Virus record (IMG/VR): IMGVR_UViG_3300001528_000192
Span: 64,001 to 128,000 of that record
Reading direction: 5' to 3' (one strand)
DNA from: a virus
Lineage: Duplodnaviria > Heunggongvirae > Uroviricota > Caudoviricetes
Length of the DNA stretch: 64,000 nucleotides
Position 1 is the stretch's first letter. Each line of letters begins with the position of its first letter. The notes below the pieces were generated by a model. That model had not been told where the DNA came from. It saw nothing but the letters and a program-made list of their open reading frames with translations, and did no database searches. This document shows positions 1 through 62,132 of the stretch, piece by piece. The position numbers and the translations under genes were made by a program.

Positions 1-723
1 AATGCTTTTGATTTATTTGATATTAATAACCCTAACGCCACTTTATTATGCAGCAAGTTTACTGTTAATCCTGTTAATAAATTCGACAATGCAGTTGGGG
101 TTAACATCACACCTCTCAATCTCTATAGTTTGCCGAATACATTCATAGTGTCTACAGACAATCAAACAGAGCAGAACTATAATGCAAATACCTTAACTGT
201 AGAAAGAAATTTCATTTCTATCTCAAGACCCGTATATATGTTAGATAAGACATATACGGCATCAGTATTATATAGCAAATTGTTTAATCAAAACTCCATA
301 GTGCTGAATGTTAACGTGTATGCTGAAGATGTAATTTCCACATTAAAAGTGCTTTTACATATAGAGGATGGAAAATTTACTAAGCTGCTTGTAGTTGAAG
401 ATAAATTTAATCTATCTAGATACATAACTCTTAGTATAAATGCAGATTATTATGTCGATATAAATAAGTCATCAAGTGTTGGCACTCTACTATATAATTT
501 CTAGGGCTTTGCCTTCAATTCTACAAGTAACTTGTCTCTTGCAAGCTATTATATGACTAGGGGAACTACCACATAGTGCCCTGTGCTAACTTCTACAGAT
601 AAGGGATTTGAATATTACGACACAACGCTAAATAAGCAAATAATCTGGAATGGTACTGAATGGACTAATTTAGATGGAACAAGCTTAGATACTCCTATAA
701 ATGAATGGACAACTATAGAATAA
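1..723 (+). CDS. Tail fibre/spike protein, C-terminal part (5' truncated; TAG=Gln at 502 and 574)
   Basis: Frame open from base 1 to TAA 721-723 if TAG is read through. C-terminus GTTTQCPVLTSTDKGFEYYDTTLNKQIIWNGTEWTNLDGT resembles the GTTxQRP...YFDTTLxKPIxWNG motif of Bacteroidota phage tail proteins. Confidence 0.75.
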
Positions 724-735
724 TACTAATATATT

Positions 736-2523
736 ATGACAGAAATTAAACAACAATTTATTCAAGTAAAAACAAAGTCCAACTTTGAGACTAGACTCAA
801 GGCTGGAGATGTTAAAGACACTTCAATAGCTTTTATTGAGGATTCAGATCAAATTTGGACCAAGGGAAAGTATTATTCAGCTGTTCCTAAAGAAGGTCAT
901 GAAAGGCAAATACTAGCATGGAAGGCTAGTGGAGAAGCTAAATGGGAAGATCTAGCAAATATGTTTACTGGTCTTGAGGAAGTATTAGCTTATGGTGTTC
1001 AGTTTGACATGACTGTAGCTGACCCACATCTTACTCGTATTGGTAATATGTCTCTTCACAAGTCACTTCCAATTCAGTCTCAATTGAAGGGTTGTATTGC
1101 ACAAGGAGATAAAGTAATCTATTGGTTAAACGAGTCTGATTGGAGATTTAGGAAAGAAGCTGTAACTCAGTCAGTAGAACTGACAGTTGCTGATGATACT
1201 TATACTATTGTAGCTGATGTATTCAGCACCCTACAATACGATAAGCAATGGGTAAAAGTAGATGGAGTAGCTTGCCAAATCAGTAGTATTGATACTAGTA
1301 CTAAGACTGCAACACTTCTTGCTAATGAGGAGCTTAAAGCTCTTTCTCTAGAGGGTGCTACAAAATCCATAGAACTTGGAGCAGTTTTGAATGGTTACGA
1401 CGGTACTGTACGAGTATATTGCCCAGCTTTCTATATTAAGTCTGCAGTAAATGATAGTGTAGCTAAAGTATGGTTATCTACTGTTAAGATTGATGATACT
1501 TACACTTATCAACCAGAAATCTTAGTTGATGCATATAGAAGTACAGTTCTAAATACTGTTCCAGAGAATATGGGATACCTTAGTACTCTTGTTGTGAATA
1601 GTGCTATTTCTGTGGTAAATACTAATACATATTGTAGAGGTGGTGGAAATAGAAGTGGTAATGATCAGTATTTAGCAACTGATCCATTTAGAACTGATCT
1701 AGGTAAGCCTAGAACTAATATTTCTAGAGCTACTATGAGGACATATTCTAGGAATGCCGATTCTCAGATGCTGAGTTATGACCAGTATAAGAATATATTC
1801 TATTGGCTCTATGTTGTAGAGTACGCTAACTTCAACTCTCAAGAAGCATACAATGCAACTCTCACGGATGATGGTTATCGTCAAGGAGGTATGGGAGCTA
1901 GTATTACTAATATGGGTAACTGGAACGAGTATAATGGATACTATCCGCTAACTCCTTGTGGTTATGGTAATACTCTTGGAAATGGAACTGGACTTGTGTC
2001 TTTAACTATTCCAGAATTTACTTATGGTTCTGACAGTACAGTAAGAGCTGCACAAACAATGCAAATGGCTAGATGGAGAGGATTTGATAACCCATTTGGA
2101 GACATTTGGACTAATCTAGACGGAATCATAATAGGCGCTGATGCAGACAATCATCCTAATAATATGAATTATGTATATACATGCCAGGATGCTAGTAAGT
2201 ATGCTGATGCTCTTAATGATTCATATGTTAAGGTAGGAGAGGAAATACATCAGGATGGATATACTAAGTCATTTGACCTAGGAGATGCCGCTCATATAAT
2301 TCCTCATGTTATGGGAGGTAATACTACCCAATACATCTGTGATTATCACTGGACAGGAAGTAAAGATAAGACCTTGCGTACGCTTATCGTGGGCGGTAAC
2401 GCTCATGACGGCGCGCCGGCGGGTCTCGGTAACTTCAACTCGTATGGCGGCGTGTCGCTCGCCTGGGCGTATCTCGGCTTCCGGTCGGTTTCTAGTTTCT
2501 TGTCTTTCTCTTCAGATAAATAA
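736..2523 (+). CDS. DGR target protein, 595 aa, probable tail fibre/receptor-binding protein with C-terminal CLec-like variable domain
   Basis: Uninterrupted ORF ending in TAA. C-terminus LIVGGNAHDGAPAGLGNFNSYGGVSLAWAYLGFR is the VR. Lies among tail genes. Confidence 0.9.
   Translation: MTEIKQQFIQVKTKSNFETRLKAGDVKDTSIAFIEDSDQIWTKGKYYSAVPKEGHERQILAWKASGEAKWEDLANMFTGLEEVLAYGVQFDMTVADPHLTRIGNMSLHKSLPIQSQLKGCIAQGDKVIYWLNESDWRFRKEAVTQSVELTVADDTYTIVADVFSTLQYDKQWVKVDGVACQISSIDTSTKTATLLANEELKALSLEGATKSIELGAVLNGYDGTVRVYCPAFYIKSAVNDSVAKVWLSTVKIDDTYTYQPEILVDAYRSTVLNTVPENMGYLSTLVVNSAISVVNTNTYCRGGGNRSGNDQYLATDPFRTDLGKPRTNISRATMRTYSRNADSQMLSYDQYKNIFYWLYVVEYANFNSQEAYNATLTDDGYRQGGMGASITNMGNWNEYNGYYPLTPCGYGNTLGNGTGLVSLTIPEFTYGSDSTVRAAQTMQMARWRGFDNPFGDIWTNLDGIIIGADADNHPNNMNYVYTCQDASKYADALNDSYVKVGEEIHQDGYTKSFDLGDAAHIIPHVMGGNTTQYICDYHWTGSKDKTLRTLIVGGNAHDGAPAGLGNFNSYGGVSLAWAYLGFRSVSSFLSFSSDK
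2377..2512 (+). repeat. DGR variable repeat (VR)
   Basis: Aligns ungapped to 2747-2882 (offset 370). 28 mismatches opposite TR adenines and 1 non-A mismatch (TR T2788 / VR G2418). Confidence 0.95.
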
Positions 2524-2556
2524 TTAGAGGCAAAAGGTAAAATAAATAAAAGAGAA

Positions 2557-2577
2557 AAGTAATTAACTTAATTACTT
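2557..2577. other. Near-perfect palindrome AAGTAATTAA-C-TTAATTACTT downstream of VR
   Basis: 10-bp inverted repeat with a 1-nt spacer, 45 nt after the VR end. Confidence 0.6.
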
Positions 2578-2607
2578 CCTTAGTGTGTAAACCCAGTAGA
2601 TGATAGT

Positions 2608-2630
2608 GAAGCAGGATTGATTCCTGCTTC
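2608..2630. other. Hairpin GAAGCAGGA-TTGAT-TCCTGCTTC (terminator or DGR cis element)
   Basis: Perfect 9-bp stem followed by CTATTGTTTACTTTT. Confidence 0.55.
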
Positions 2631-2746
2631 CTATTGTTTACTTTTAGAAACATTTTAGGAATGCATCCAACGAAAGTACGTGATTTTACTGATTTTCGTT
2701 GAGAGGATTGCTGGAACTCATGTACTAGTACTATTTGTCGATAAAC

Positions 2747-2882
2747 AAAACACTTATCGTAGGCAGTAACGCTAATAACGGCACGAATGCAGGTCTCAGT
2801 AACTTCAACTCGAATAACAGCGTGTCAAACACCTGGACGAATATCAGCTTCCAGTCAGTTTCTAGTTTCATGTCTTTCTCTT
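2747..2882 (+). repeat. DGR template repeat (TR), part of the non-coding DGR RNA
   Basis: Rich in AAC/AAT codons with 41 adenines. Identical to VR except at A positions and one T. Shares the pyrimidine-rich 3' end GTTTCTAGTTTC(A/T)TGTCTTTCTCTT (IMH-like). Confidence 0.95.
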
Positions 2883-3041
2883 TTATATTTCTTGTTTGGT
2901 TTCATCTCTCGGTGAAACTGACAAATTTTTCCTGAGGGTGTATATCCTTGCCACTTGGCAAAAGATAAAGTATATAAACAAACTGTGTTAGTAACGAAAG
3001 TGAACGCTCGGTTAGCATAATATAAAAATTGTGTTACTATA

Positions 3042-4295
3042 GTGAAGAGGGTTAAGGACTTGTATCCAAAAATCTATGACTAGAAGAACATAGAATTAGC
3101 CGATGAAAAGGCTAGAAAATGTAAGAGAAATAGATATGGAGTAAGAAAACACGACGAGCATAGAGATATAGATAACTATGCATTGCATTTAGCATTAAGA
3201 GAACAAGATTACCATACATCAGAATATACTACTTATAAAATATATGAACCAAAGGAACGTCTAATATTTAGACTTCCATATTATCCAGATAGGATTACTC
3301 ATCATGCAATTATGAATGTGATGGAACCAGTCTGGACTAAGGTATTCACGAGAGATACCTATTCTTGCATTAAGGGAAGAGGTATTCATAGTCTAGTATA
3401 GAAACTGCAGTAGGACTTAAGAAAGGATCCAGAAGGTACAAAGTATTGTTTGAAAATTGATATTAGGAAATTCTATCCTAGTATTAATCATGAAATTCTA
3501 AAAGAAATCCTAAGAAAGAAGATAAAGGATAAGGCTTTACTAAAACTTCTGGATGAAATTATAGATTCTGCTGATGGTGTACCAATAGGTAATTATTTAT
3601 CTTAGTTCTTTGCTAATCTGTATATGACATACTTTGACCACTGGATAAAGGAAGAATTGAAGGTCAAATACTACTACAGATATGCAGATGATATAGTTCT
3701 ACTATCTGATAGTAAGGCTAAATTAAGGTCATGGTTTCTTGCTATGAAAATATATCTTACTCAAGTATTAGACTTACACGTAAAAGACAATTATTAGATA
3801 TATCCTGTAGAGTCTAGAGGAATAGACTTCGTAGGATATGTTTGTTATCATAACCATACACTACTAAGGAAAAGTATTAAGCTAAGACTATGGAAATTAG
3901 TAGATGCTTATTGTAACAAGAAAATAAGTAAGGAGACTTATGTAGCACGCATGGCATCCTATTCTGGATGGCTGAAGTATTGTGATTCTAAGAACTTACT
4001 AAAGAAGATAGAGGGGAAAACTAATTTTAGATACTCAGGTTGGAATGGAATAAAGACTAGAATAAGTAAATTCAAAGGGAAATGGATTTATCTAGTTAAT
4101 ATAGTACCTCACAGAAAGTACTTTGTTCTATAGTTTATGTATAATAAGAGAGCATATGAAGTGAGAAGCTAGAACAAATAGCTCTTTATTTATCTAAATT
4201 CAATACCTAAGTATCCTGCATCAATTAAAATTGAACAATGTTTACAGCGACAAAAATTGAATCTACCATTAAGCCTAAAGGATTTGAATCACTAA
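3042..4295 (+). CDS. DGR reverse transcriptase, about 417 aa (GTG start; 8 in-frame TAG=Gln)
   Basis: Motifs KERLIFRLPYYPDRITHHAI, KIDIRKFYPSI, GVPIGNYLS(TAG)FFANLY and YRYADD (YADD 3681-3692). TAG at 3081, 3399, 3411, 3603, 3795, 4131, 4170, 4179. First TAA at 4293. Confidence 0.93.
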
Positions 4296-4951
4296 ATAAT
4301 GGTATTTGGTATTATAATTATGACGTAGAGGAGAAAACAGTTAAAGTATCCTCTATGGACGGAGAAGAAACAGATGAAACTAGATATTCATATGTCCAGG
4401 TAAGAATTTCTGGGGAACCGACCTTATCTAAGTGTTTTGAAGCAATACTTAAAGAGTATAAGGATGAACATAACACTAGTCTTTATGACGTACTCCTATC
4501 AGAGGGAACTAATGATCAGATAGAGGACATTAACTATAACATAAAAGTTGATTTCAATATTGCTCCAGAGAAATCTCCGTTAGAAAGAGCCAAAGAGTTA
4601 GTACTTAGGGAAATTGATCAATATGATACCTCTTCTAACGTTAATGGCTTCATGTTGAACGGAGTTCAGGTATGGCTAAGCAAAGACACCAGGGTAGGAC
4701 TCATGAACTCTATAACTATAGAGAAAAATGCAGGAAAGGAGGAATCGGTATTGTGGCTAAATGGAATTTGTATTACAGTTAACTGTGATGCTGCAATTCA
4801 AATGTTAAGTTCTTTGGAATTATATGCTTTAGCTTGTTATAATAAAACAGCAGAGCATAAACTAGCGGTGAGTCAACTAACTGATGCCTCTAAGGTAAAA
4901 GCTTACGACTATACTGTTGGTTATCCAGAGAAGCTATCATTCACAATCTAA
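4238..4951 (+). CDS. DUF4376-like tail-associated protein, 237 aa
   Basis: C-terminal IDQYDTSSNVNGF...WLSKDTRVGL...LELYALACYNKTAEHK...YDYTVGYPEKL pattern recalled for DUF4376 phage proteins. Confidence 0.7.
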   Translation: MFTATKIESTIKPKGFESLNNGIWYYNYDVEEKTVKVSSMDGEETDETRYSYVQVRISGEPTLSKCFEAILKEYKDEHNTSLYDVLLSEGTNDQIEDINYNIKVDFNIAPEKSPLERAKELVLREIDQYDTSSNVNGFMLNGVQVWLSKDTRVGLMNSITIEKNAGKEESVLWLNGICITVNCDAAIQMLSSLELYALACYNKTAEHKLAVSQLTDASKVKAYDYTVGYPEKLSFTI

Positions 4952-6656: not shown

Positions 6657-6669
6657 GAAAGGAGGGAGT

Positions 6670-8251: not shown

Positions 8252-8851
8252 ATGGGAACTATTAAAAGCAATTATATTATATGCCTAGACAATGGACATG
8301 GAGTAAACACTCCAGGAAAGTGTAGCCCAGATAAAAGACTCAGGGAATATTACTATGCTAGAGAAATAGTTAAAAGACTGGAATCCAAATTAAAAGAGAA
8401 TGGCTATAAAGTATATGTAGTTACTCCAGAACAGGAAGATGTTTCTCTAAGAGAAAGATGTCAGAGGATTAATAAGGTATGCAGATAGAATGAAAATAAA
8501 GCTATCTCAATCTCTGTGCATTGCAATGCAGCTGGCGCTGACGGTAAGTGGCATACTGCCTCTGGTTGGAGTGTGTTTATATCGCAAAATGCTTCTCAAA
8601 ATTCAAAGAGACTAGCAAAAACCCTTTATGACGAGGCTCTCTCTTTAAATCTTAAAGGAAATAGAGCTGTTCCAAAGGAACATTATTGGGTTCAGAATCT
8701 TGCAATGTGTCGAGACACTATTTGCCCAGCAGTACTAACAGAGAATCTTTTTCAGGATAACAAAGAGGACGTAGATTTTCTGCTTTCAGAAAAAGGAAAG
8801 CAAGCTATAGTAGATGCTCACTATAATGGAATTGTAAAATATCTAGGATAA
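8252..8851 (+). CDS. N-acetylmuramoyl-L-alanine amidase (Amidase_3) endolysin, 199 aa (TAG at 8486)
   Basis: LDNGHG, RE (Zn ligands), SVHCNA and LTENLFQDN motifs are split across two track fragments joined by one TAG. Confidence 0.92.
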
Positions 8852-10842
8852 TGGACATAGAAAAGGAACTATAGCAATTAAAATAGAGAATAACTTCATT
8901 AGAAACATAGAAAAATGTCTTGTTTGGAAGTTCTTACAGTAGTGCTGGTTCCTCTTCTTCTGATTATCTTATAAAGACTAGAGGGAAAGTTAAGATCCAA
9001 ATTGGAAATAAATTCATAGACCTCTTAAAAGACGGAAAAATAAATGTTGACTCTAAGTTCATTTTTAAAGAAAAAGAAGTAGGGTCAAAGGATGGAATAT
9101 ATATTATAGGAGACGGAGAGGATGCTAAAGTAATTATTTCCATAGGAGGATCTTAGATAGACTTAAAAGGAGAAATAGGAACCACCTATGTATCTTTCTT
9201 AGGTGCTTAGGAAACAACTCCAGAACAAAAGCACACTGCTCTTTAGAATATTGGATTTTTATACTAGAATGTTTCAGATATTTAGTCAAATGGGCTAAAG
9301 ACTGGAATAGTCTACGTAGAGTCAGAGTAGAAACTGTATATTGTCCAAGACGGTCAATTAACAGAATTTACTATAGACTTTCCTAATCCCTATCCAAAAT
9401 AGTTCGTTATATCCAAAACTGACAAGGATAAAGGGGCTTTAGTAATAAAGGGTTCTGGAATAGAAAATTCTTTGGCTTTTGACTCCTTATCATTGTATTC
9501 GTCTGGAGGAGGTACTTATATGGATTCCTCTGGGGAAATTTATATGAGAATTGGGGAGGAAGAGAAGATTCTTATAGGGGAATCTCAAGTAGTATTTTCT
9601 AATAAAGTAATCTCTTAGACATTTCAGTCTAAGAATGCAACAGAGTCATCTGGATTCAGATTGTATGTTGACTAGGGTGAATCTACTTTAGAAGTTGACA
9701 ATTTAGTAGTAAGAAAGAGTTCTAATCTCTCTTCAAATAATTCTTCAAATCTATACCCAAAGTACTGGTATAGAGAAAACAACCTAATCTCGGACATTTC
9801 AGAAATGAAAGACCCAGATAATCCAGACTAGATTGGATATGCGGTAGACCTAGTTTATCAAAATAAATTTCAGGTTAAGGATTCTTTATATGTCTTTGCT
9901 TCTATAAAGAAGGAGGAAGACTTAGCAAGTAGTTTAATACTTTTGCCACTTAAGGTAGAAGCCCTTAACACTGAAACAGGCAATATAATATATGTGAGCT
10001 TACAACAGGATCTTATAAGTGAAGAAGATTACAAAAAACTATCTTCCGATAAGGTGCTTAGTGCATTAAAATTCTAGACGGTATTTCTAGCTGGAAGAGA
10101 TGAGGCTATATCTCTAATTAGGAGAGACTTCTAGAATATTGATTTATTAACTTCTTCAGGATTTGCCGACGAATAGGATATTAAGAAAGTATCGACTAGA
10201 ATTGGAAATATAGAGGAACTCAATCTATCAAGTCGAAAGGATGATGAGGAAGTACCTATAAAAGGTATTGGTATGTATTCTGACAATGCTTGTTTTTTGA
10301 AGGCATAGTATACATCTTCTTACGACTTACCTTCCAAAGATTCCTCCTCTAAATTTGCATCAACTGAATGGGTTAACAAGCTGATCCCTAAGGGTTCTAT
10401 TATAATGTTTAGTGGTCTATCCTCAGAAATTCCAGATGGGTGGCATATATGTGATGGAACTGGCGGAACTCCAAACCTAATAGGAAGGTTTATTAAAGCA
10501 TCTAATGCATCTGGAGAAATAGGCGGCAATTCTACTATATAGATTTTAGAAGAAAATATGCCAAAACATACTCATACATTTGTTGGAAATCAGGTAACTA
10601 CTTCAGAAGCTGGAGCGCATACTCATACCATTAGAGGAAAGTATGGAAAGTCTGATAACGCTAATGATAGGAATTGTCTAGAAACTGGCTCAGAAACTGA
10701 TTTAATTACCACGTCACAATCCGGAGCTCATACCCACACAATAGATATGAGCAATACTTAGCTAAGCTATTAGGGAGAGGGGAAGCCCATAGAGTTTGAG
10801 CCCTTATACTACTCTCTCATTTATATTATGAAAACGAGTTGA
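8851..10842 (+). CDS. Tail protein with C-terminal tail-collar domain, 663 aa (about 20 TAG=Gln)
   Basis: TAATG-coupled start. No TAA/TGA in frame until 10840. IPKGSIIMF...IPDGWHICDGTGGTPNLIGRF is a tail-collar motif. Confidence 0.85.
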
Positions 10843-12004: not shown

Positions 12005-13432
12005 ATGTTAGTTGCAAATTTTACAAGCAGAATCCCTACAATGGGTTAGACAAAAACATACGAGGACTGGTCTAAGTACCTCGGAAGTAAACCTCATCGT
12101 ATCGGTGTAGTTGCCCGTATGTACACAGATAATACTCTTAACTTCATTACTGATGGTTTGAGAAATATCTTCTACAAAGATGAGAAAGCAGACCAATTCC
12201 AACTTTCTAGTTCACTTTTGTTTGAGTGGATTGTTGAAACTAACAATATTAAGAAAGTTGAATTTGCAGAAGTTCCAACTGAAACAGGAGAAAATGGAAC
12301 AGAAATTACAATGGCATTTAGGGAAAATTACTACCAGAAATATGACATTTTCCGTATTGATAAGACAAAGCAGCAATGTCAGGTAGTGAGCCGCCCAATC
12401 CGTAAACGTGATGACTATTGGGAAGTTCAGGTACGCCTAATCGACAATGATTATGATACTATACTTGATACTGACGGATGTCAAGTAGGTGATACTACTA
12501 CATTCCAGTCTGTAGCTATGCCTGAACTATCAGAAGAGGGTTACTCAAAATTCCAGAGCCAAATGGAGCGTCATCGCAACTTTATGACTACATTCCGTGC
12601 AGATGCTAGCTGGTCTAGCTTGTTTGCTATTCAGGAAAATGTATTCATGAGCATTGCTGACGACAAGGATCAAACTAAATCTGAAGGTGTATATAAGATG
12701 CTCAAGAAGGAGAAGGAACTTCTTGATACATTTATGTATGCGATGAATACAGGTCTTACATTCAATAAGGGTAATATTGATGTAAACGGTAAGGCTACTA
12801 TTTCAGAGCCAGAAACTGGACGTCCAATTTATATTGGCGAAGGTCTTATTCCTCAGATTGAGGCTGCTGCAAACAAGTATTGCTATAGCAATAGACCTAA
12901 TCTACAATTATTTAACATGATTATGTCAGATATGGCTGACAAGGCTCAATCTGATACAGGTAACAAGTTTATCTTCATTGTTAACAGGAAGATGTGGAAC
13001 GATCTACAGATGACTCTTGGTGAGTATCTTGCTAACTATAGAACCGATGGTACTTATATGTACTCTAAGTCTGCAAATAAGGGCTTAGGTGGATATGTTA
13101 AGGTAGGTGCTACATTCGACACTTACGAATATGCAGGAAACCAAGTAAGCTTCGTAGTTGACCGTGCACTAACTCGCGAATATCCTACAAAGGGATACGG
13201 TGTGTGCATCGATTTGACTGCTGATAAAACTTCTGGTACTCCAGCTATTGCTAAATTTAGCTTGACTGGTAAGGACTTCATGACTAACAAGATTGTTGGT
13301 GTTGGAGGCTACGATGGAAAGAGTTCTGGTGAAGTTGCTAGCAACGTTGCTGGTTCTAAACTTGTTATGATGGGTTATGCAGGTGTTGCTGCATTTACTC
13401 CTTATAGAAGCGTAATCGTAAGAGAAGCTTAA
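12005..13432 (+). CDS. Major capsid protein (crAss-like), 475 aa (single TAG at codon 15)
   Basis: MLVANFTSRIPTMG(Q)TKTYEDWSKYLGSKPHRIGVVARMY... resembles crAss-like MCP N-termini. Size, position and the strong downstream terminator fit. Confidence 0.85.
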
Positions 13433-14389: not shown

Positions 14390-14460
14390 TCAGCATGTAT
14401 ATGTGTTGAGATATAGCATATACAAGCTAGATAAGACGATAAAATAGCTAAAAAAAAAAC

Positions 14461-15498: not shown

Positions 15499-15512
15499 AA
15501 ATAATTTAAATT

Positions 15513-21900: not shown

Positions 21901-22457
21901 TCCTGCAGAGTAAAGGAGTAATCGTTGCGGAGTAGGAAGAAATAGAAGAAACTCTTCAGCCAAATATAACATATACTATAGAGGGGATTGACTCTACTTA
22001 CAAGTTCAACATAACTAGTTCAGATAATACTTCTGGTATCTCTCTTAGAAACCACATGCTTGATCTACAGGTTACTAATCAAGGCATAGGAATATTAGAC
22101 TATAATGGAAGAGATTTGATAGGAGGTTCCGCTGCTAATTATAGCAATACTAAGTTGTATTATATAACTAAGGGAGACACTGTAACAGTAAAGGCTGCAA
22201 CTAATGTTCCATTTAAGAAAATAAACTATTCTAAGGATAGTTCAGGAAACGTGGTTGTCAGCGCAACTACTACCTCCTTAGAAGTAGGGAAGGAAAATCT
22301 AAATAATAGATTCCAATTAAATGATGGGGGTCTTTTAATACTTAAGGATCCTACTACTTCTGAACTAGAAATGAAGAGAGATGGAAATAATGATACTGGT
22401 AAAGTAAGAGGATTCCAGAAGGCACGATTGTTAAACAAATATAGATATTATTCATAA
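18969..22457 (+). CDS. Large tail (stabilization-type) protein, 1162 aa
   Basis: N-terminus NTF(Q)EGMIMDLNPLVTPNNVLTNCLNGT...L(Q)NDMGNGRV...C(Q)IGSFPSPER resembles crAss-like tail proteins. No TAA/TGA in frame until 22455. Confidence 0.8.
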
Positions 22458-31213: not shown

Positions 31214-31224
31214 CATATATTATA

Positions 31225-50900: not shown

Positions 50901-53900
50901 GATAACTATGACTTAGTATTTACTAAGGGAAATGGTAATCACACATTTATTACCTTTAAACCACTTCAGAAGAACAGTGATAACTGTATGTCCTTCTATA
51001 GAGCTTGGGATAATATAAACAAGAGAAAATATTAGAGGGAATACGAAGTGTCAGAAAATTCTCCAACTGTAGTAAATAGAATATATGCTATAACTGGAGA
51101 TAATGTACGCCTGTTTGAAATAGGTAGAGAGATAGTAAGAGACGATATTGTATGGGATAGCAAGAAAGAAGCCTTCGTTAAAGGAGGTAAAAAGGTTAGA
51201 AACTAGAATACCTATAGAAGAGATGGAGATAGAGTACTTCAATATATAGAATTTGTATCTAAGCACAGAGTTAATGAAACAGCAGAGGATGGATCAATAA
51301 TGTCCTATGATCTTTATAATATTAATAGAAGTGCTATAAAGCAGTGTTTAGAGTAGAAATAGTACTCTGATGCTGAGCTTACATACACTAATGCAGAAGG
51401 ACACACTTCTAAATTAACTCCAGAACAGAAATTTGATTAGGAAGTTAACTAGTATATTAGCCGACTTCTTGGAAATATTTATAAATCTGATGAATATGGA
51501 GGAATATAGCTAAATAAGTCTCTCTCATTTGGATCTGGAAAAGTTCTCCAAGAAACCTTATATAATTTTAGCAAAGAGATAGATTATGATTAGGACTTAT
51601 CAGAATATGTAGTATCTTTGCATAAGATAATGCAAGCTGCAAACCCAAATAAAAATGATAATAATCGCTTTAAGATTGCAGGTATTAAACTTAAAAAAGC
51701 CTTGGCTGCATTTGATGCAAGGAATTAGAATAAGCAATATACTTCTTTCCAAAAAGCATAGAGCTTTACAGTTGCCCGTATTCCAGCTCAAACACTACAA
51801 TCATTCATGAAGATGAAAAATGTAGGATTTACTGGAACAGAAACTGGACAATGCTTTGTAACTGCATGGTAGACATGGTTACAAGGATCCGATTACGATA
51901 TAGATAAGGCATATGTCATGGGTTTGTGCTTTGATACTAATGGTAAATATATTGGGTGGAGTAACCTATTTGATTATTCTACAGATGAAACACTAGCTGC
52001 TTCTGAATACTTGCCTATGCCTTAGAAAGTAAGACATACAGTGATAAATGATGCAGCGACTGCTAGAACTAACCTTGCAAAGTAGCTAACTGAGACTACT
52101 GATGAAAATAGGAAGGCTGTAATAGAAAATAGATTGAGGCAACTTGATCACATAGTTGATTTAGATCCTTGGATTGAAAGGATTAGTAATGAACCCAACT
52201 AGGCTGCTAAAATCTTGTTGTATGCAGACTTGATAAATGAAATTAATAAAGAAGCTTATTAGGACGGAGACAGCAAAACTGTCAATATATCTTATACTAA
52301 TCCTTCTGGATTAGAAGTAGTGAAGAATCTTAATAAGCATGAATTTACTTAGATTCCTCCTAACTTATCCCAGGATGTAAGTAAAAACTTTATCTCCTCT
52401 CACATCCAGAACACTGTTTAGGACTTGGTTAATATGACTAGAGCATATTCTCCTATTGAGATGGAAGACTTCCGTGCTGCATCTGGATACAGTCCAAAAT
52501 AGAAGGCAGCTTCAGAAATGACTCTTTTAAATCCTGCAACTAAGTACCTTATGCAATATTCTAATATGACTGGTAAGAATGTCATTGGTATTGCTGCTAA
52601 TGGTGAGAAATCCTCATTCATGTGGCACTATTACTTAAATGATCTAATTAGGCATGGGAATGCAGAGAAGAGAAAATATGGTCATTTCTAGTTTACAACA
52701 AACAGGATTATAGGTAGAGCAAAGGGAAATATCTAGTCTGGAACAATAACAGGTCTTCCAGATCTAAATATGGACGGAGTTGCTCCTAATATTTAGGCAG
52801 AATTTGGATCTAGAATTACTGGAAACCTTTATGTTGACTTGATGATTAGTCAGGTTTTATCAGCTGCAACTGATAATGCTAAGGAGTTAATCCTTGCTAA
52901 GGTGAATGCAGGTAATAAACTAGCAAAAATGTATCTGTTCCTTATTACAGTAGGTATGAACATTGATGATATTGTTACGTTCATGACCTCACCTGTAGCC
53001 TCATTTATAGATTCTATTACAGAAGAGAACATCTTTGGAGGACCTACAGTTGATATAAACACTGCAATATCATTTGCTAGGGGTCAATTTATGACTAATG
53101 GCAAAATAAATCCTAAGATGGAAGCTAGGTATGGAGCATTGAAGATGCTCTAGATAAAGGAAGCATATGAGAAGGCAGGATTAGGAAATCCAGAGAATAT
53201 TGAAAGTGTTGTTGCTGATTGTGATGAGTTTTAGAATGTACTTGAAGGAGCTAATGAATTTAGTAACTTTGGTAGATTCCTGGGACTTAATCAAGGTCTT
53301 CCTACATCTAAAGTCGATCTATAGAAACTCACTTCATTTATTCAAAGTATCCTCTCTTAGAGAGTAGAAGCAACTTTAGGAGACACTAAGGTATCATCAG
53401 AACTAAAGGAGTAGCTAAAAGATATTGCACCAATGGATGTCTTGAAATGGTTAAAGGATGCTAACTATCGTCAGTAGATCGCTGATGAATATGACTAGGT
53501 AAAGAAATGTATTAACATATTTGATGCCTTTACTCATATTTAGCAATTTGATGCTATTAGAGATATTCTCTCCACAGTTATTGACATTGATAGCAATCTC
53601 TCTTTTAAATCCAAAGCATTCAATGCTGTATTTAATTAGGCAAAGAGTACTTACAGGTATATATCTGAGAAGTATCAGAAGAGAATGTTAGGAGGAATAG
53701 ATGCTGCAATAATATCCAACTTTATTTAGAGCTAGAATATTAGCATTCCAGTAATGGCTGGAACTAAGTACTTGCAGGCAGATGCTTCAACCGGGACATT
53801 CAAAGAAAATGGACAGCTATATTTGGATAATAGAGCTTCTATTGCATCCTTTAAGTATATCTTTGAGAACGTAATTATTCCTAAATTAAAGTAGGGAATT

Positions 53901-54713
53901 GTAATTGAAGCAGATGCAGAAGGTAATATCTCCGAGAAAAAGTATGCTGATTTAGCTAACAATCCATTTATATCTGGACTCTTAAGAAGTAGTGAATAGA
54001 AGGTTCCCCTTTATAAGGTGGGACTAAATATGATGACTATCAAAGATAGTACAGAATCATAGAAGAAATATCAAGCATATTCATCTGGGTTATAGGCTCT
54101 ATCTAAATATAAGATGGGAAATCAGGCTCTATCTGATTTGTTTATGCTCTATAATCTAATTGTAAACAAGAATCAGTATGGTGCAAGTAGATTAACTACT
54201 CTATTTGATGCGTTCATAAGTAAGAATCAGTAGATGAGACTTCTATCTAAGTACTTTGATTACCTTGGAAAGGTAGACTACTATGGAGTTCCTAGACTAG
54301 ATACTGACTCCGAATTTGATTCCTCTAAATATTCTAAAGATGCTCCTATCTTAGGTCTTAGCTACAAAGATATACTAGTGTCAGCAGCATCTAATGTTCG
54401 TTCTACGAAGGGTCAAACAGATCCATATTGTATTCAAATGACAGAAGACGGGCCTGTAATAATGGAAAGAATAGGAACTTCTTATCAACCAATGCAAGGG
54501 TTCCTGAAGAAAGGATAGAGTGAAAGTCAAGATCATTATCTAGAAAGGGTAAATAATGAGAGAAGCTATTTTGTACTAGGTGGTCAATTTTCTGATTACT
54601 TGCAGAATTAGCTGAATACTATACAAGAACTGAAAGATTCAGATAATATTATCTCTTATATAAATAATTTTATAAGGGATGGACTATTAACCGTAAGTAA
54701 AGTTTGCGAATGA
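44958..54713 (+). CDS. Virion DNA-dependent RNA polymerase (crAss-like, single-chain two-barrel), 3251 aa
   Basis: VARIPAQ then QGSDYDIDK (DxDxD at 51891-51905). Upstream beta-like KR and DAHDG (48732) motifs. 11 track fragments share one frame. Confidence 0.88.
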
Positions 54714-57157
54714 GTAAATGTATTATTACAGTTAAAGTCAATGGGGAAGAGCTGAAGTTGAACTTAAATGGTAGTTCTCCTTCAGTCCTCATTGATGAAA
54801 GCTTTATATAGGCACTAAGAGAAGATCCAGAAGCCCTTAATAAAATAGTAGAAGGGATAAGAGCTTAGTCTATAAATAGTGGGCTAAGAAATATAAAATT
54901 AAAGGATTTATAGCAAGAAGGAATATAGGCTAACTGTTCTCTTCAGTATTTAAGAGAAAGTCCAGAGTTTAGTGACATACAGTTTCCAGAAGGAAATGCT
55001 AATGTATTGTTAGTTAATAAGTTATCTATTGGTGGTAAGCCAATATATGGTAGAACCATAAACTCTAATGGAGAAGAAGTATTTATAGTCAAAGGGACTA
55101 AAGAGGATGTCCAGAAGCTTGCAAACTTTCTAAAGATTAGAAATACCATAAGAGATTATGGGTTGAATATATCAGAAGAGTCTCCATACTATTAGGAGCT
55201 AAATGAAATTCTTTAGGAAAGTAAGCAGAAAAACCCAGACATAAGCAGCATTGAGGATATGCTCGTAGACTACGTTTCTAACAAGAAAGCATATTCAGGA
55301 ATCTTTCTCAAAAGCGGAAAGAGTGCTATATAGGTTGCTGAAAGTTTTCTGAGAAACTTAAGGAATTACGATATTCCCAATGATTTTGAAGATCCATTTG
55401 TGACTGATCTTAACTTTAGAAAGTTCTATAAAGGAGATGGTGAGATATTTATTTCCAATTAGGATTTATATAAAATGCTAAAGCAATATCATAAGCCGCT
55501 CCTGGAGAGCCTCGGAATTTCCTCTTAGAAAACATTTAATGAGTTGGGAGCTAAAAAGGTAGATGAGGTTGTAAACTCTATACTGGACTATACAAGCAGT
55601 CAAGAAGGAAATGTTGAGGATGCTAAGCAGACTCTGGATGGCGCAAAGAATGGATACGATGCTATACTGCGATTGGTACTATCAAGTGAGCCAGATTTCA
55701 CCTACTAGTATGACTACAGTAGTAAGAAAGGTATAACTTTAAAGTAGCAATTTACTCCTATATCAGAAAAGTATGGCATCGCCTATGATACTATTTAGAA
55801 CATGGCTACAGAACCTTATAGAGGTTATACAATATATGCAGAAACCCTTCCAAATAAAAAGAAGAGATATTATCTAAGTAGAGGCACTATGGTTGAGTAG
55901 AGCCTTAGTAACTCATATACCTCTAAGAAGGCTGCACAAGCAGCGGTTGATAAAGCATTAGCTAAACAACATCTTAGAAAAAATTCATTAATTGAATTTA
56001 AATTCCGAGATCATTCTGTGAATGAAGATGGAAGTTCTAACTGGGACAACAGTCTTCCAAGTGAATTTGTGAGAAGCTCAACTAACTTTCTCCCAGGACA
56101 GATAATAGAATCTTTAAACATTCCAGTAGATAGAAATACAAACATCAGAGGAGATGAGCAGTTCCTTTTAGGTAAGAATGCATACACTTTATAGAGTTTC
56201 AATAAACTAATATAGTCTTGGAATATTGACGATAATAGCAAAGCTCAAATAGTTTCTGAAATGAATACTCCAGAAAAGGCAGTAACTTATATCTACAAGA
56301 TAAATGAGTTGCTTGGAATGGAGGATAGAACGAATGCTAAGGAATTAGTGAATATAGCGGATAATATAGCTGGAAGCGATTCTAACTATTATTACATAGA
56401 GGATAGGAAATCTCTAGGATCTAATGGTTGGGAATATAAGGTCATTCCTACTGATAAAGACTAGATGTAGGAATATAAGAAGAACCAAACAGCCCCAATT
56501 ACAATGTGGATGTCTGCAATCTTAACTGCTCTCTAGAACTAGTTCAGGGTTCCTATAAATCTTGTTACTTCAGAGGAGGTGTCTAAAGAACTAAAGGGAA
56601 TAGCTGACCCAAATATTGATAAAGCTTTCATTTATAATGGAGAGGTGTATGTGAATACTTCTATTGCCTCAACTAATGACCTTTTACATGAGCATGTCCA
56701 TCTAGTATTGGGAATGTTAAAAAGTAATCCAGAGTTAAGAGGAAACTATGAAAGACTATTAAATTTGGTTTTAAGTACAGATGAAGGAAGGTTCACTCTA
56801 AATAAACTAAAGGATAGATATTCGGGACTCTCCCAGATGGATTTAGCAGAAGAAGTTTTTGCTAAACTCTTCAGTAACTATGTTAGAAGGCATACATCAC
56901 TTCAAACAGACTAGGTATTTAGTGCTTCAGAGGACTAGTTAAAGAAACTAACCAAGTCAGTATTTAACACTAATATTTCAGATGTAAAGGAATTTTATGG
57001 GAAGAGTGTAACGAGTATATTCGGAAAATTTAATAAGGAAGTAGCTCAAATGCTACAATCTCCTGATATAGATTTTGGTTCTACTAAAAACTCTAGAAAA
57101 ATATCTGCATGGATTTCTAAGCAAGTGGCAGATGGTAATATAATAGAAAAATGTTAA
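54710..57157 (+). CDS. Protein with zincin-like metallopeptidase motif, 815 aa
   Basis: DLLHEHVHLVLG (HExxH at 56687-56701) and downstream LAEEVFA. ATGA overlap with the RNAP stop. Confidence 0.8.
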
Positions 57158-57158
57158 T

Positions 57159-60100
57159 ATGAATTATTGTCATTATACTTTAAAAGCAAATGGTCAAGAG
57201 TTTACTTCTTATAGTGAACTCTTAGACTATTTAGACGAAGTTTTTTCTAATAAGAATGAACTTAAGCAACTTGATAAGATAACAGATATAGTTTTCAGTA
57301 GGGCAGATAGGCAAACTTCTCAGCTAAATAAGCTCAATCAGATTAAGGTAGACGGAATTACTATGAGCTAGGCGTCCATGATAGATGGAGAACCTTCCTT
57401 TGATTCATCTAAGTTGAATGTATTAAGCTTCCTTGATATGCCTTAGTGCAACATAGAGGGTAAGCCTCTGGTCACTCCATTTAATACTGATGCATACATA
57501 TAGGAAAGCATAAAGCATTTAGTGGATGACTTAGGAGTAGATCCAGAATCTGCAGAAAAGCAAGTAATGTAGGAGGTAGAACAATGGAAATTCTTGAGAA
57601 ACGATGCTAAGTTCATCCATCTTTTAGGAGATTCTAAAATCCTATTTGAAAGCGATGATGCTAAGTATCAAGACTTAATTGCAGATTCTGTTCCTGATAG
57701 TATGTAGAAAGTTGCAATTTCTTTAAGAGATTAGTTGCACGGAGTCTGGGTTAAAGAGAAGGGAAAGTATCTCAATAGTAAGGCTATCTAGGGATTAAAT
57801 ATTAAGGCTAAACTATAGGGTTTAGATAAGGAAATATTTGGGCATATTGATTGGCTATTTATAGGAGAAGATGGAACTCTTCACATGTATGCATTAAAGA
57901 CAACAACTCAGAGTCCAAGAGAGTGGACTGGTGTGAAAGCAGACAAGTATAAATATCAGCTAGCTTTCTTAAAGTAGATGTTAGCATATAATGGGGTTAA
58001 TGTCAAAAACATCGACCTAAATGTAGTCCCCATAAGAGTTGCATATAATTCTGAGGGAGTAGTTTCTTCCGCTAAAGTATAGGCAACTATATAGTATAGT
58101 ACTAAGAAATCAGGAAATGGTTATTCTATGCATAAATTTGATAAATAGGTAGCCCATTTTATAAAAGACAATTCAATACCTTATCACATATCATCATAGC
58201 CAGTATCTAGAGCTTTATAGGTAAATAAAGCAATATTCCCAACTATAAACCTAAGAAGCGAAGGAATTGGACAATCTGCTAGGGAATGGATTAAATATGC
58301 TCCCTCTATAGACCCAGAAGGCACAGAACCTCTCGTAATTACATAGGTAAATGATATAGACCATGCATATGAGGTAACTATAAAAGGAGAGAAACATAAT
58401 ATTAAATCTAATAAGCCTAAGGAAAGAAACCAAGAAATTCAAGATTTGGTATCTAAGTATATATCAGACTTAGAGGATTCTAAAGGATACTCAACTCAAA
58501 GGCTTAAAGAAGCAATAACTAATAGCTATGATAAAGGATTCATGACCTTTTCTACAGTTCCTGGTTTAAAGAGTATAGCAATTCAATTGGAGGCAGTCCT
58601 AGGTAAATACTTAAATGACTATGTAACTGATGAGAAAACAGGAAAAAGAGAATACACTTGGGAACTTCTTCCAGATTTAATTGACGCAAACATACTTGCG
58701 TTTAGGAATAATGAGGATAACACTCTAGACATAATTACTTTATCTTCCTTTGATTTACGAGCTAAAGCTCCTATTAAACAGGGACGAAATAATATACTCG
58801 GATATTATAAAAGAGACAGTGAGTACATAGACTTAGAGGGAGACTACGGTAATGTAGAAGCAGTAAGAACTATGGAACTTCTGAATGAGATGTTGCCGTA
58901 GTTAGGTGATAATGTGAAACTCGGAACTCTTGGAATATTAAGTTCCATAAATGGAGCAGCCTATAGATCTTATAACATAGGTGAATTTAATAAAAACTAC
59001 TTTTAGAATATAATCACAGTCGTAAATAAGGAAAATGAGGGGTTAAACATTGAGAATAATTTCTCTGTCGCACAATTTACAGATCCTGTAGAGGAAATTC
59101 TAAAAGAATATACTACCATTACAACTGGAAAACCTGAGGCATATGTTAGAGAGTATGATTAGTATGGATTCGATGAACTAAAGGATGCAGATAATGACGT
59201 AGTTTAGAGACATTCTCTAGAAAATATACTGAATAGAATACTAACTCAGTATCCATCATTTTCGGATCCAGAGGAGGTTGAAAAAGCTTTAGCACAGTCT
59301 ACTCAATCCCTTACTAGAAATATGGCAACTCTATATGAATTAACCGCCAGAGCTTACCTAACATTAAGAGGAGAAACCCCAAAGAATAAAAACTCCTTAA
59401 ATGGACTAAATACAACATTCTTTACTGCCCCTACTGTGGATTCTGAAAATATCAGAATAGTTGTAAATAATCTATAGATAACTCATGATACTATTGCAGA
59501 AGAGTTCTTGAAGGAATATGATTCCAGTATTAGAGGTATGTTTGATCAATTCTATAAGAAGCAAGGATATACCTCTGCCCAGAATATGATTATAGGAAAC
59601 TAGGCACAACAATACTCAAATTTCTTTAATCCTGACGATGAGTTGATGTCATTTAAGAATCCTTATGATACTTCTAATGACTTAAAACCTTAGGAAAGAG
59701 AACTCCTGAAGGAGGTGCTATTTAGAATTGATAAAATTAACAAGAATGGAAATTCTAGATTCTATTCCGCAAATGACCCAAAAATTAAGGAATGGATAAA
59801 GAACCATCCGGAATACCTCTGGGTTCCACTAGAGAGAGCTTCTGATGCTACCAAGAGATAGAGTGCTGAAGCTATTTTGGCAGGAATGAAAAATTTCTGC
59901 AAGAAGGTAAAGGACGCATCAACTGCATTTGATGAATTTGTAGAAGGTATTACTGATGAAGAAAGAGATTTGCTTGGAAGAGATTCTGATTCCTTTTACA
60001 GGATGCATCTAAGAAATCCATTTAGTCTCAGTATGCCAACTAGTTAGAGTGGAGTTAATGAAACAATGAAGTCTAGGAAAGCACTACTAGATAAATATGG

Positions 60101-61721
60101 AAAAGGATTCTTTGAAACCAATGTAGAAAATATAATGGTGGACTTCTTAGCTAAGCATATATCTACTACATAGTATAACAAATTGCTTGTAGCCTCTAAA
60201 GCCTTAATGTTAGAGCTTCATCTTACTGGTAATTATAATGGGAATAGAGAAACAGTAAATAAGGAAATTAAGTACATGTAGGACTACCTAAAAACTAATG
60301 TATTCCACACATCAATCATGAGTCCAGCTGAAAAGAAAATAGTAGGAGTTATATCTCCTATTAAAAGAGTAGTTTCTCATATGTTACTTGGAGGAAATAT
60401 AGTATCCGCCTTAAGAGACTCTATAGAGGGAGCTCAGCAAAACTTTATAAGATCTGTAATCAAACTCAATACGGATTTAGATCCAAAGGATATAAGTAAA
60501 GCCTATGCTTATGTATGGACTCATAGCTCTTCCAATGCGATGGCTTAGAACTTGTTAAGTAAGCTGTGCTTAAGATATAGAATATCAAATACTGATGTCG
60601 GGCGTATCGCAGAGAAGGCAAAGACAGGCAGAAATGGAATACTTAATTATGAGAATTGGATGTATAGCACCCTTAGAGGCCCAGATTTTCTAAATAGGAT
60701 GACATTATTTGTTGCTAAATGTATGCATGATGGAGTATGGGATGCTATAAGTCTTGATTCAGATGGAAATCTTAAGTATGATTGGACTAAAGATGCCAGG
60801 TTCAAAGCCTTTAAGTATGGAGTAGTAGGATCTGAGGAATATAAGAAGGCTAAATCTCTATATCTATCTAGAATTAGAGAATATAATTAGGAGCATCCAG
60901 ACAATCCAATAGAAATGACTGATAACCTCCCAGAACCATATTCCAAACGTATGATTAATGCCATTAGAGGTCTAGGTGATAACATATATGGTTCTTACGA
61001 TAAAGGTAAGAGAGCTATGGAGGAAAATGCTAGTTACGGCTTCCTGTTTGGTAGTTTCTCTACTTGGATGAATGGAATTATCAATAATTACTTCATGCCA
61101 ACTTAGAAGAACGGAGTATCTTCCTTAAAGCTAGAATAGGAAATAGATGATAAAGGTAATAAGCTATTCTTTGATGAGCATGGCAACATAACTAATGAAG
61201 ATACAGGAATGCCTGTGTACAAAAATGTTCCTATTATAGTTTAGGGAATCCTTCCAACAATTAGTGATTTAATTAACATTACAAAGGAAGACGGACTAAA
61301 GGCGGCAGTTGCCTATGTAAAGGGAAACAATATGGTGAAGGCAAACGTATTTAAGCTTACTTCTGATGCTCTGATGTTTGCCTTACTTGGATCACTATTT
61401 GGTCTGCTCTTAACTCCTGCCTATAAAGAGCACAAAAAGGCCGCTGCAGACAATCCTGTACTAGTAAATCTTCTCACAGAGATACTATATAAATCGTCTT
61501 CTAGGTCTTATGATTAGTATAAGGGACCTCTAAATGTTATATAGTTCTTTGGAGAGAATATGAATCCTCCATACTATAGTGCACCTGTTAATTTGTTAAA
61601 AGAAGCAGGTCAATCAATATTTGGAGATAAATCTTGGAAGTATTTGTTATTTGACAATACAGGTTTAACCAGATCTATTAAGGATACTGGATTTGCCTAT
61701 ATTAAATCTCAACAATAGTAA
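57159..61721 (+). CDS. Large virion-associated protein with PD-(D/E)xK-like domain, 1520 aa
   Basis: FGHIDWL...YALKT...KYKYQLAFLK(Q)ML. Six track fragments in one frame. Ends TAG-TAA. Confidence 0.8.
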
Positions 61722-61729
61722 AAAAAAAA

Positions 61730-61753
61730 GCTCCACTGTTTTAACAGTAGAGC
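61730..61753. terminator. Hairpin preceded by an A tract and followed by AATTTTT (possible bidirectional terminator)
   Basis: GCTC-C-ACTGTT...AACAGT-A-GAGC. Confidence 0.5.
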
Positions 61754-61767
61754 AATTTTAAGAATCT

Positions 61768-61950
61768 ATGACTTACAGTGAAATAACTGAAATCGCAAAA
61801 CATGGAAAGTTAGGTAAACTACCTAACTTTATAGGGTATTTTAAGTGGGACTTTGGATCTAATTCTCTCATATTCTATAATGGAGATTATAGATGTCCTG
61901 CAGAATCTCTAGATGTACTAAATAGAAACGATTTTTACTATATAATATGA
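61768..61950 (+). CDS. Small hypothetical protein, 60 aa
   Basis: ORF track. TGA overlaps the next ATG (ATGA). Confidence 0.65.
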   Translation: MTYSEITEIAKHGKLGKLPNFIGYFKWDFGSNSLIFYNGDYRCPAESLDVLNRNDFYYII

Positions 61951-62132
61951 ATCCTTTGCCTAGAAATGACTTGAAGGGGAAATATCCTAGGTGCCACTAT
62001 AACAAATTAGGAAAAGCTAAACAGGTATTCTTCTCAGAAGAATCTGCAGAAAAATATCTTAGAAAAATGAACCTTAAAGATTATACTATTTATTAGTGTA
62101 GATATTGCAGTTAGTATCACATAGCACATTGA
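61947..62132 (+). CDS. Small putative Zn-binding protein, 61 aa (TAG at 62094, 62112)
   Basis: MNPLPRNDLKGKYPRCHY...Y(Q)CRYCS(Q)YHIAH, with CxxC-x2-H. Visible only with TAG=Gln. Confidence 0.7.

Follow-up and report, generated by a model that had tools for sequence, protein, structure and literature searches.

The window analysed here is a 64,000-nucleotide stretch (genome positions 64,001-128,000) of a 174,147-bp phage genome rated 100% complete by CheckV. ORF coverage, the gene array and per-gene counts of TAG, CAA and CAG place the window's share of a TAG-recoded late-gene block at positions 1-62132 on the plus strand. The whole block, also on the plus strand, occupies genome positions 44,088-126,132 and comprises virion, lysis, DGR and probable transcription genes. 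The following features are located in the window:

736-2523, plus: tail protein, the DGR target (phrog_5302 tail protein, E 4e-74), with the variable repeat (VR) of the VR/TR pair at 2380-2512
2750-2882, plus: DGR template repeat (TR), a 133-nt direct repeat of 2380-2512 with 80% identity
3042-4295, plus: DGR reverse transcriptase, RT (phrog_1423, E 2e-112; Pfam RVT_1; PDB 8ub7, E 9e-47)
8252-8851, plus: N-acetylmuramoyl-L-alanine amidase, an endolysin (Pfam Amidase_3, E 9e-31; phrog_435)
8851-10842, plus: tail fibre protein (phrog_5795/1800 on its C-terminal part)
12005-13432, plus: Crassvirus-type major capsid protein (Pfam Crass_capsid, E 6e-14)
13517-16487, plus: three genes adjoining the capsid gene, considered here for their codon counts
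18969-22457, plus: virion protein of 1,162 aa with 18 TAG codons
22457-27469, plus: Crassvirus muzzle protein of 1,670 aa (Pfam crAss_MUZ, E 7e-36, and crAss_MUZ_C) with 37 TAG codons
27471-36098, plus: six Gln-rich genes with the short motifs KKxQQGG and KAQQGTK
36089-44956, plus: protein of 2,955 aa with an SF1/RecD-type P-loop NTPase at residues ~1580-1720 (Pfam AAA_30, E 1.6e-7) and 71 TAG codons
44958-54713, plus: protein of 3,251 aa with 79 TAG codons and a DYDID (DxDxD) motif at residue 2312
54704-61721, plus: two large genes, one of 817 aa with 21 TAG codons and one of 1,520 aa with 34
62189-63839, minus: first genes of a standard-code arm, open under table 11, which end the recoded block

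The 3,251-aa protein had no match in Pfam or PDB sequence searches, nor any profile or structure match. Because its DYDID motif is conserved in the relatives G004 and G005, it is probably a crAss-type RNA polymerase (RNAP) subunit, by analogy with the proteins described by Yutin et al. (2021, Nat Commun, PMC7886860). Family searches with the 817-aa and 1,520-aa products were also without match. Among the Gln-rich genes, the four scanned (27471-29396, 29380-30174, 31177-34179 and 34179-36098; the scan left out 30165-30740 and 30820-31155) gave no PHROG or Pfam match; the six are possibly cargo-like.

The proportion of the window's plus strand covered by stop-to-stop ORFs of at least 100 codons was 39.0% under table 11 and rose to 95.5% when TAG was taken as sense (longest ORF, 3,258 codons), compared to 39.8% and 46.3% in controls with TGA or TAA as sense, respectively. 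ORF restoration is specific to TAG. This comparison of tables 15 and 11 had been proposed in a preliminary description of this DNA, which held that reading through TAG merges same-frame fragments into gap-filling genes ended by TAA or TGA. In line with that claim, positions 1-62132 read with TAG as Gln form a near gap-free array on the plus strand, and the eight stop/start overlaps listed there are all real (TAATG at 4949, 8849, 17951, 22455 and 34177; ATGA at 18969, 54710 and 61947). Summed gene by gene, the window contains approximately 400 in-frame TAGs, and the fused genes reach 3,251 codons. In 45 plus-strand genes we counted 498 TAG, 488 CAA and 269 CAG codons; all 45 end in TAA or TGA and, since both triplets were kept as stops when these ORFs were defined, these ends and the absence of TAA and TGA inside the ORFs follow from that definition. 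TAG accounts for about 40% of Gln codons in the block, and its position within genes is unbiased (KS p 0.93) and like that of CAA and CAG.

TAG is a sense codon in this block: conserved genes are broken by TAG alone, never by TAA or TGA, and read-through restores them. The many short ORFs returned by a table-11 gene caller would also be expected if the in-frame TAGs were untranslated, be it in a decayed or pseudogenised phage, through assembly or base-calling artefacts, or in short genes that truly end at TAG. The ORF statistics, together with the conservation seen in relatives, refute that explanation, to which we assign a vanishingly small probability. About 20,000 codons run in one frame with neither TAA nor TGA, while off-frame these two make up ~3.6 to 6.5% of codons; protein-family matches to RT, capsid, muzzle, TerL and portal cross TAGs; the same genes carry in-frame TAGs in 13 independently assembled relatives, with identical TAG positions preserved across assemblies; and CheckV scores the record as complete.

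To assign an amino acid to TAG, codon-level alignments were made with three whole relatives (G002, G004 and G005), and likelihoods were computed with substitution frequencies drawn from the same alignments. G005 lacks TAG in frame, reads TGA as a sense codon and encodes a tRNA(UCA). Altogether, 221 TAG codons of the phage align to sense codons of G005, where Gln is the top partner (21%, against a background frequency of 3.8%), so that the residues opposite TAG are enriched in Gln, as the preliminary description had anticipated. The phage's own CAA and CAG codons match Gln at 27%; the lower value for TAG indicates that it stands, on average, at less conserved sites. Gln was the maximum-likelihood identity in all three comparisons, leading the runner-up Glu by 54 (G005), 102 (G002) and 142 nats (G004); Lys trailed by 71 to 196 nats, and Trp, Tyr and Leu fell outside the six best.

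Individual sites, for which an invariant Gln had been claimed, gave the same picture, and the three motifs concerned were found exactly as described: IGNYLS-TAG at 3585, GDEH-TAG at 41231 and L-TAG-NDMGN at 19104. The RT gene has eight in-frame TAGs (codons 14, 120, 124, 188, 252, 364, 377 and 380). Codons 188, in the SQ motif, and 252 are CAA or CAG in seven of seven TAG-free RT homologs, with Q opposite both in the solved Bordetella DGR RT (8ub7), and codon 364 is CAA in two close relatives. The GDEH-TAG site (codon 1719 of the 2,955-aa protein) is CAA in all three whole relatives, and the L-TAG-NDMG site (codon 47 of the virion protein) is CAA in G002 and G005 and TAG in G004. An internal control, in which one peptide is written with CAG in one gene and TAG in another, was correct in its codons (KAQ-CAG-GTK at 28581, KAQ-TAG-GTK at 32437), as was the pair KKFQQGG at 30856 (CAG CAA) and KKMQQGG at 31237 (TAG TAG). 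As a control it is weak, because the match covers 9 residues only (BLASTP E = 0.37 in a single comparison) and no paralogy is detectable between the genes.

One further feature lies outside the window, 24 kb upstream:

Genome 39,763-39,835, minus: tRNA with anticodon CUA (ARAGORN)

As drawn by ARAGORN, it folds into a normal cloverleaf of 73 nt whose anticodon stem has 5 bp. It has the U1-G2 start, the D-arm and A73 in common with the phage tRNA-Gln(UUG), to which it is 64% identical overall; identity to the phage tRNA-Trp(CCA) is 71%, and the anticodon arm is Trp-like. The sequence of this tRNA does not reveal its amino-acid identity. The Trp-like arm, the ARAGORN label 'Pyl' and the few TAG columns that pair with Tyr, Lys or Glu in relatives, such as TerL 421 (TAT/TAC), could be taken to mean that TAG encodes a residue other than Gln, e.g., Glu, Lys, Trp, Tyr, Leu or pyrrolysine. 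We consider this very unlikely: the label was given because the anticodon is CTA, the tRNA is of ordinary form with an acceptor start and D-arm common to tRNA-Gln, Glu and Lys lie far behind Gln in likelihood, and sites invariant across relatives (RT 188, RT 252, GDxxQ and TerL 467) have CAA or CAG opposite TAG. At the level of aligned codons, TAG behaves as Gln, and the robustness of this reading (genetic code 15) is supported by tests independent of the choice of translation table.

The genome uses two codes in separate parts. The minus-strand replication and early arms are readable under table 11 and TAG is still terminal in some of their genes: 90 early-arm ORFs end in TAA (52), TGA (27) or TAG (11). 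Most of the 11 have a TAA or TGA in frame 1 to 30 codons further on; one (genome 4896-5213, with 233 read-through codons) falls in a recoded minus-strand island and is not an early gene. Such small TAG-recoded islands occur on the minus strand, and a homing endonuclease inside an early arm (genome 146,805-147,482) is also recoded, with 8 TAGs. The claim that recoding extends across the whole virion module must be amended: the block is real, yet its TAG use is uneven, it also holds probable transcription genes, the DGR and the endolysin, and it starts 20 kb upstream of the window.

We consider it very probable that this is the late block of a crAss-like gut phage, with TAG read as Gln via the phage's own CUA suppressor tRNA, next to early arms in standard code. 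The tRNA(CUA) would be charged by the host, presumably via either GlnRS or Gln-tRNA transamidation, and would compete with host release factor 1. The phage genome encodes neither a release factor nor a GlnRS, which would leave the tRNA as the sole basis of the code switch. Since the early arms are in standard code and keep TAG ends, the recoded genes would become fully translatable only after suppressor tRNA has accumulated, and this may couple virion and lysis genes to late-phase expression.

Decoding could instead be supplied by the host, through a TAG-sense code or a suppressor of its own, with the phage tRNA(CUA) incidental. Consistent with this, no suppressor tRNA was detected in G002 despite 201 aligned in-frame TAGs, and the agreement between recoding and suppressor is imperfect according to Yutin et al. 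(PMC7886860). We nevertheless regard host decoding as extremely unlikely. Among the six genomes examined, the suppressor type agrees with the recoded stop in five: tRNA(CUA) is present in G000, G001, G003 and G004, and tRNA(UCA) in the TGA-recoded G005. Furthermore, early arms in standard code within the same genome, where about 10 of 90 ORFs end at TAG, usually with a back-up stop near, would be senseless in a TAG-sense host, and the hosts in published cases use the standard code (bioRxiv 10.1101/2021.08.26.457843).

TAG is distributed unevenly among the late genes. It is absent from five genes of the window with products of 100 aa or more (736-2523, 4238-4951, 13517-14389, 15513-16487 and 30820-31155). 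The major capsid gene has 1 TAG among 19 Gln codons and its G002 and G004 orthologs have none; the neighbours at 13517-14389 and 15513-16487 have none here or in either relative. Together, the capsid gene and these two neighbours use 1 TAG in 34 Gln codons, against 40% overall, and they stay free of TAG in two relatives only 52-58% identical (G002 and G004). The endolysin has 1 TAG in 8 Gln codons. TAG makes up 50-60% of Gln codons in the fibre (20 of 33), muzzle, portal and RNAP-like genes; muzzle orthologs contain in-frame TAG in G001-G004 and in-frame TGA in G005. The DGR target gene is TAG-free (0 of 24 Gln codons), in contrast to its RT, which requires eight read-throughs, although target orthologs do use TAG (5 of 16 in G002, 10 of 15 in G004). 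It is conceivable, if doubtful, that TAG density acts as a conserved, graded control of expression and does not reflect one uniform change of code. Were suppression slow or leaky, TAG density would determine how much of each late protein is made relative to the others, or when, and DGR mutagenesis would be confined to the suppressed state. This uneven, conserved use of TAG in late genes is the sole aspect that might merit comparative study.

The phage carries signature genes of the Crassvirales, namely Crass_capsid (6e-14), crAss_MUZ (7e-36), TerL (phrog_6681, 4e-72) and portal (phrog_6547, 1e-45), and tblastn matched its TerL and MCP to those of Suoliviridae and Steigviridae at 21-29% identity. 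Yutin et al. (2021, Nat Commun, PMC7886860) described a Zeta group, the family with the largest genomes (145-192 kb), in which TAG, TGA or the standard code is used depending on the branch. The present genome falls inside that range, its relatives measure 161-175 kb, and neighbouring branches have recoded TAG (G000-G004) or TGA (G005), as that paper states. The likeness extends to the Crassvirus-type capsid, muzzle, TerL and portal, the many tRNAs including a suppressor, and recoding mostly of late genes, and probably to the giant DxDxD-motif proteins; by gene set, genome size and code use we found no substantive difference. The DGR sits in the recoded block of this phage, and a word search of PMC7886860 found no mention of 'reverse transcriptase'.

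As the preliminary description acknowledged, TAG=Gln had already been described in crAss-like phages (PMC7886860, PMC9523058). Peters et al. (2022, Nat Commun, PMC9523058) detected peptides with Gln at TAG sites by metaproteomics. Their code-15 phages, like this one, read TAG as Gln, are fragmented under the standard code and repaired by code 15, and encode suppressor tRNAs; they are other crAss-like genomes, with peptide data. Code 15 in crAss-like phages is thus published and confirmed by metaproteomics, and no new principle is added here. In practical terms, standard-code annotation breaks most late genes of this genome, and pipelines must therefore apply code 15 to the block while reading the early arms with table 11.

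As in the phages of Borges et al. (bioRxiv 10.1101/2021.08.26.457843), standard-code replication genes and recoded structural and lysis genes are combined in one unit and the suppressor tRNA lies inside the standard-code part; the recoded homing endonuclease of the early arm is likewise comparable to their Agate intron endonuclease. Unlike in that study, this phage has no 'code-change module' of RF2 or aaRS, and its amidase endolysin is not TAG-rich, in contrast with the preferential recoding of amidase and spanin in their crAss-like set. Compared with these systems, the phage adds one more clean example of a large crAss-like phage that is recoded in blocks, and a nearby sister lineage has TGA recoded.

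In the comparison of gene tables that the preliminary description had proposed, stop-to-stop ORFs of at least 100 codons were collected on the + strand of the window. Table 11 yielded 49 ORFs covering 39.0% of the window, while reading TAG as a sense codon gave 39 ORFs that covered 95.5% of it, the longest with 3,258 codons. No such gain was obtained in control readings with TGA (39.8%) or TAA (46.3%) as sense codons. With start codons applied, the + strand between 1 and 62132 resolved into a tight gene array with approximately 400 in-frame TAGs (summed per-gene counts). The eight stop/start overlaps which the description had placed in this array were all present, as TAATG or ATGA, and its seven peptide motifs were each located where it had put them, with the codons it had read; therefore, the use of TAG as a sense codon was confirmed. 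The peptides offered as an internal control, written with CAG in one gene and TAG in another, were also exact in motif and codons, but they constitute weak evidence, as the match spans nine residues (E = 0.37) and the two genes are otherwise not detectably similar or paralogous. A short KKxQQGG motif was observed in three proteins (at 30856 and 31237, and at residue 259 of the protein encoded at genome 46,199-47,572), and in two of these it is close to the N terminus. The QQ pair is encoded by CAG CAA in one case and by TAG TAG in the other two, and the motif may act as a signal for processing or targeting.

The IMG/VR record comprises 174,147 bp (completeness 100% by CheckV), and the G+C content of the window is 35%. 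Judged by family matches, the phage is identified as crAss-like, with the following matches within the window:

12005-13432, major capsid gene, Crass_capsid (Pfam), E 6e-14
22457-27469, Crassvirus muzzle protein, E 7e-36

Directly upstream of the window, family matches revealed a crAss-type large terminase (TerL) and portal, and the TerL and major capsid proteins of named Crassvirales were matched at 21-29% identity by tblastn. A protein of 3,251 aa (44958-54713) gave no profile match; it carries a DYDID motif that is kept in relatives and, based on the description in PMC7886860, is putatively a crAss-type RNA polymerase. For both the helicase-like region and the giant proteins, sequence searches of the PDB returned no match.

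Regarding the amino acid inserted, homologs from the protein collection showed mostly Gln opposite TAG. However, the TerL DNA of 13 IMG/VR relatives contained 9-21 in-frame TAGs, at the same sites as in the studied phage, so that the database proteins had probably been translated with code 15 already. This residue table was thus discounted as circular and set aside for codon-level tests. Here, 45 + strand genes were compared by tblastn with three relatives available as whole genomes (G002, G004 and G005), the subject codon was read beneath each query codon, and the likelihood of each identity was calculated with substitution frequencies taken from the same alignments. G005 served as the key control, since it has no in-frame TAG, and its 64 aligned in-frame TGAs were mostly opposite Trp. 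The outcome for query TAGs facing sense codons was as follows:

G005: 221 TAGs, Gln 21%; own CAA/CAG to Gln 27%; background Gln 3.8%; Gln over Glu by 54 nats
G002: 343 TAGs, Gln 20%; own CAA/CAG to Gln 29%; background Gln 3.0%; Gln over Glu by 102 nats
G004: 384 TAGs, Gln 23%; own CAA/CAG to Gln 37%; background Gln 2.8%; Gln over Glu by 142 nats

The enrichment of Gln opposite TAG anticipated in the preliminary description was borne out in the three relatives (20-23% vs. a background of 2.8-3.8%). Glu was the runner-up in every comparison, while Trp, Tyr and Leu fell outside the six best identities in all three. At individual sites, codons 188 (the “SQ” site) and 252 of the DGR reverse transcriptase (RT) were CAA or CAG in all seven TAG-free RT homologs and the solved Bordetella RT structure (8ub7) has Q at both; within the C-terminal extension, two close relatives have CAA at codon 364. 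The GDEH-TAG site was CAA in G002, G004 and G005 alike, and the L-TAG-NDMG site was CAA in two of these and TAG in the other. Both the codon-level likelihoods and the site checks support the interpretation of TAG as Gln. TerL proteins of standard-code Crassvirales (cr10_1, ProJPt-Bp1 and crAss001) were also tried as column reference and were too distant (23-29% identity); the TerL gene of phage cr52_1 contains 8 in-frame TAGs.

A genome-wide scan placed the recoded + strand block at genome 44,088 to ~126,130. It therefore begins 20 kb upstream of the window start, and includes TerL (17 TAG) and the portal (28 TAG). The minus-strand arms (genome 1-40 kb and 126-174 kb) were readable with table 11, and the same strand contains three small recoded islands:

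genome 4.2-7.4 kb, minus strand, 10-11 TAG in each of three genes
genome 40.4-43.7 kb (40,398-43,691; locus L009 2395-5691), minus strand, three genes with 16, 17 and 10 TAG
genome 146,805-147,482 (locus L080 305-982), minus strand, homing endonuclease (phrog_314, E 6e-20) with 8 in-frame TAG

One gene of the second island matched minor-tail-protein and, more weakly, endolysin/peptidase families; the suppressor tRNA is encoded downstream of this island on that strand, beyond a 146-aa TAG-free ORF. The recoded homing endonuclease sits within the otherwise standard-code replication arm. Among 90 ORFs of at least 100 aa in the standard-code arms, 52 ended in TAA, 27 in TGA and 11 in TAG. One of these 11 is located inside the 4.2-7.4 kb island (233 read-through codons), leaving approximately 10 true early-gene TAG stops, and most of the 11 have an in-frame TAA or TGA 1-30 codons past the TAG. 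Thus, TAG appears to work still as a stop in the arms.

The 22 tRNAs detected by ARAGORN all lie on the minus strand at genome 2-40 kb and include a candidate suppressor:

genome 39,763-39,835, minus strand, tRNA with anticodon CUA, ordinary 73-nt cloverleaf

In its U1-G2 start, D-arm and A73 it agrees with the phage tRNA-Gln(UUG), while the anticodon arm is closer to the phage tRNA-Trp(CCA), and overall similarity was ambiguous (71% to tRNA-Trp and 64% to tRNA-Gln). Therefore, charging identity is not readable from the tRNA sequence, and TAG is assigned to Gln on the basis of the substitution data instead. The suppressor type agreed with the recoded stop in five out of six genomes, with CUA in the studied phage, G001, G003 and G004, and UCA in G005. 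In the TAG-recoded G002 (loci L043-L051), which has 201 aligned in-frame TAGs but only three tRNAs, no tRNA with a CUA anticodon was found by ARAGORN or by the Rfam tRNA model. The tRNA(CUA) of G004 (88 nt, genome 160,755-160,842, minus strand, within locus L060) has an extra 3-bp hairpin in its variable region, whose 7-nt loop CUUUGAA mimics the Gln(UUG) anticodon loop; this arm is not present in the plain 73-nt tRNA of the studied phage. At genome 28,420-28,505 (minus strand), an 86-nt Rfam tRNA match overlies a shorter tRNA-Lys(UUU) called by ARAGORN, and the extra length looks, by eye, like a D-region insertion. No RF-1, PCRF or GlnRS domains were found in the genome. Following the model of Borges et al. 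(bioRxiv 10.1101/2021.08.26.457843), tRNA(CUA) would be charged by the Gln-charging machinery of the host and compete with host RF1, and recoding may have a role in late-phase timing.

The 45 + strand genes contained 498 TAG, 488 CAA and 269 CAG codons. The positions of TAG and CAA/CAG along genes did not differ (KS p 0.93), and a general early TAG gate was rejected, as the first 30 codons showed no excess of TAG (odds ratio 0.75, p 0.36). Between genes, the share of TAG was strongly uneven (chi-square 157, 44 d.f., p 1e-14). TAG accounted for 1 of 19 Gln codons in the major capsid gene and for 0 of 6 and 0 of 9 in its neighbours 13517-14389 and 15513-16487, that is, 1 of 34 in the three genes vs. 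40% overall, and the orthologs of all three in G002 and G004 were TAG-free. It made up 50-61% of Gln codons in TerL, the portal, fibre, muzzle, the 27471-29396 gene, RT and three of the four giant genes, and 47% in the RNA polymerase-like gene.

A complete diversity-generating retroelement (DGR) lies within the recoded block at 736-4295, with a 133-nt variable repeat (2380-2512) at the 3' end of a tail gene, 80% identical to the template repeat (2750-2882), and RT at 3042-4295. RT carries 8 TAG and the target gene (736-2523) none, while the target orthologs in G002 and G004 do use TAG. RT was absent from G002, G004 and G005.

G005 (loci L033-L042; TerL loci L024-L026) belongs to a sister lineage with ~41% TerL identity, a 172-kb genome and a tRNA(UCA). 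As it is TGA-recoded with no in-frame TAG, the reassigned stop differs between close branches of a single phage group. In three relatives (loci L019, L021 and L023), the TerL match spans ~3.4 kb vs. 2.35 kb, which suggests an intron or intein insertion. Such insertions have been reported in this phage group.

With regard to known recoded phages, Yutin et al. 2021 (PMC7886860) described crAss-like phages whose suppressor tRNAs allow read-through of UAG or UGA “mostly, in late phage genes”, as well as a family with 145-192 kb genomes. Borges et al. reported the same layout as in the studied phage, in which the early genes follow the standard code and the late genes are recoded. Every feature of the recoding found here fits the descriptions by Yutin et al., Peters et al. 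and Borges et al., and TAG recoding of this kind is an already known phenomenon, beyond which the conserved unevenness of TAG use among the late genes is one point of interest.
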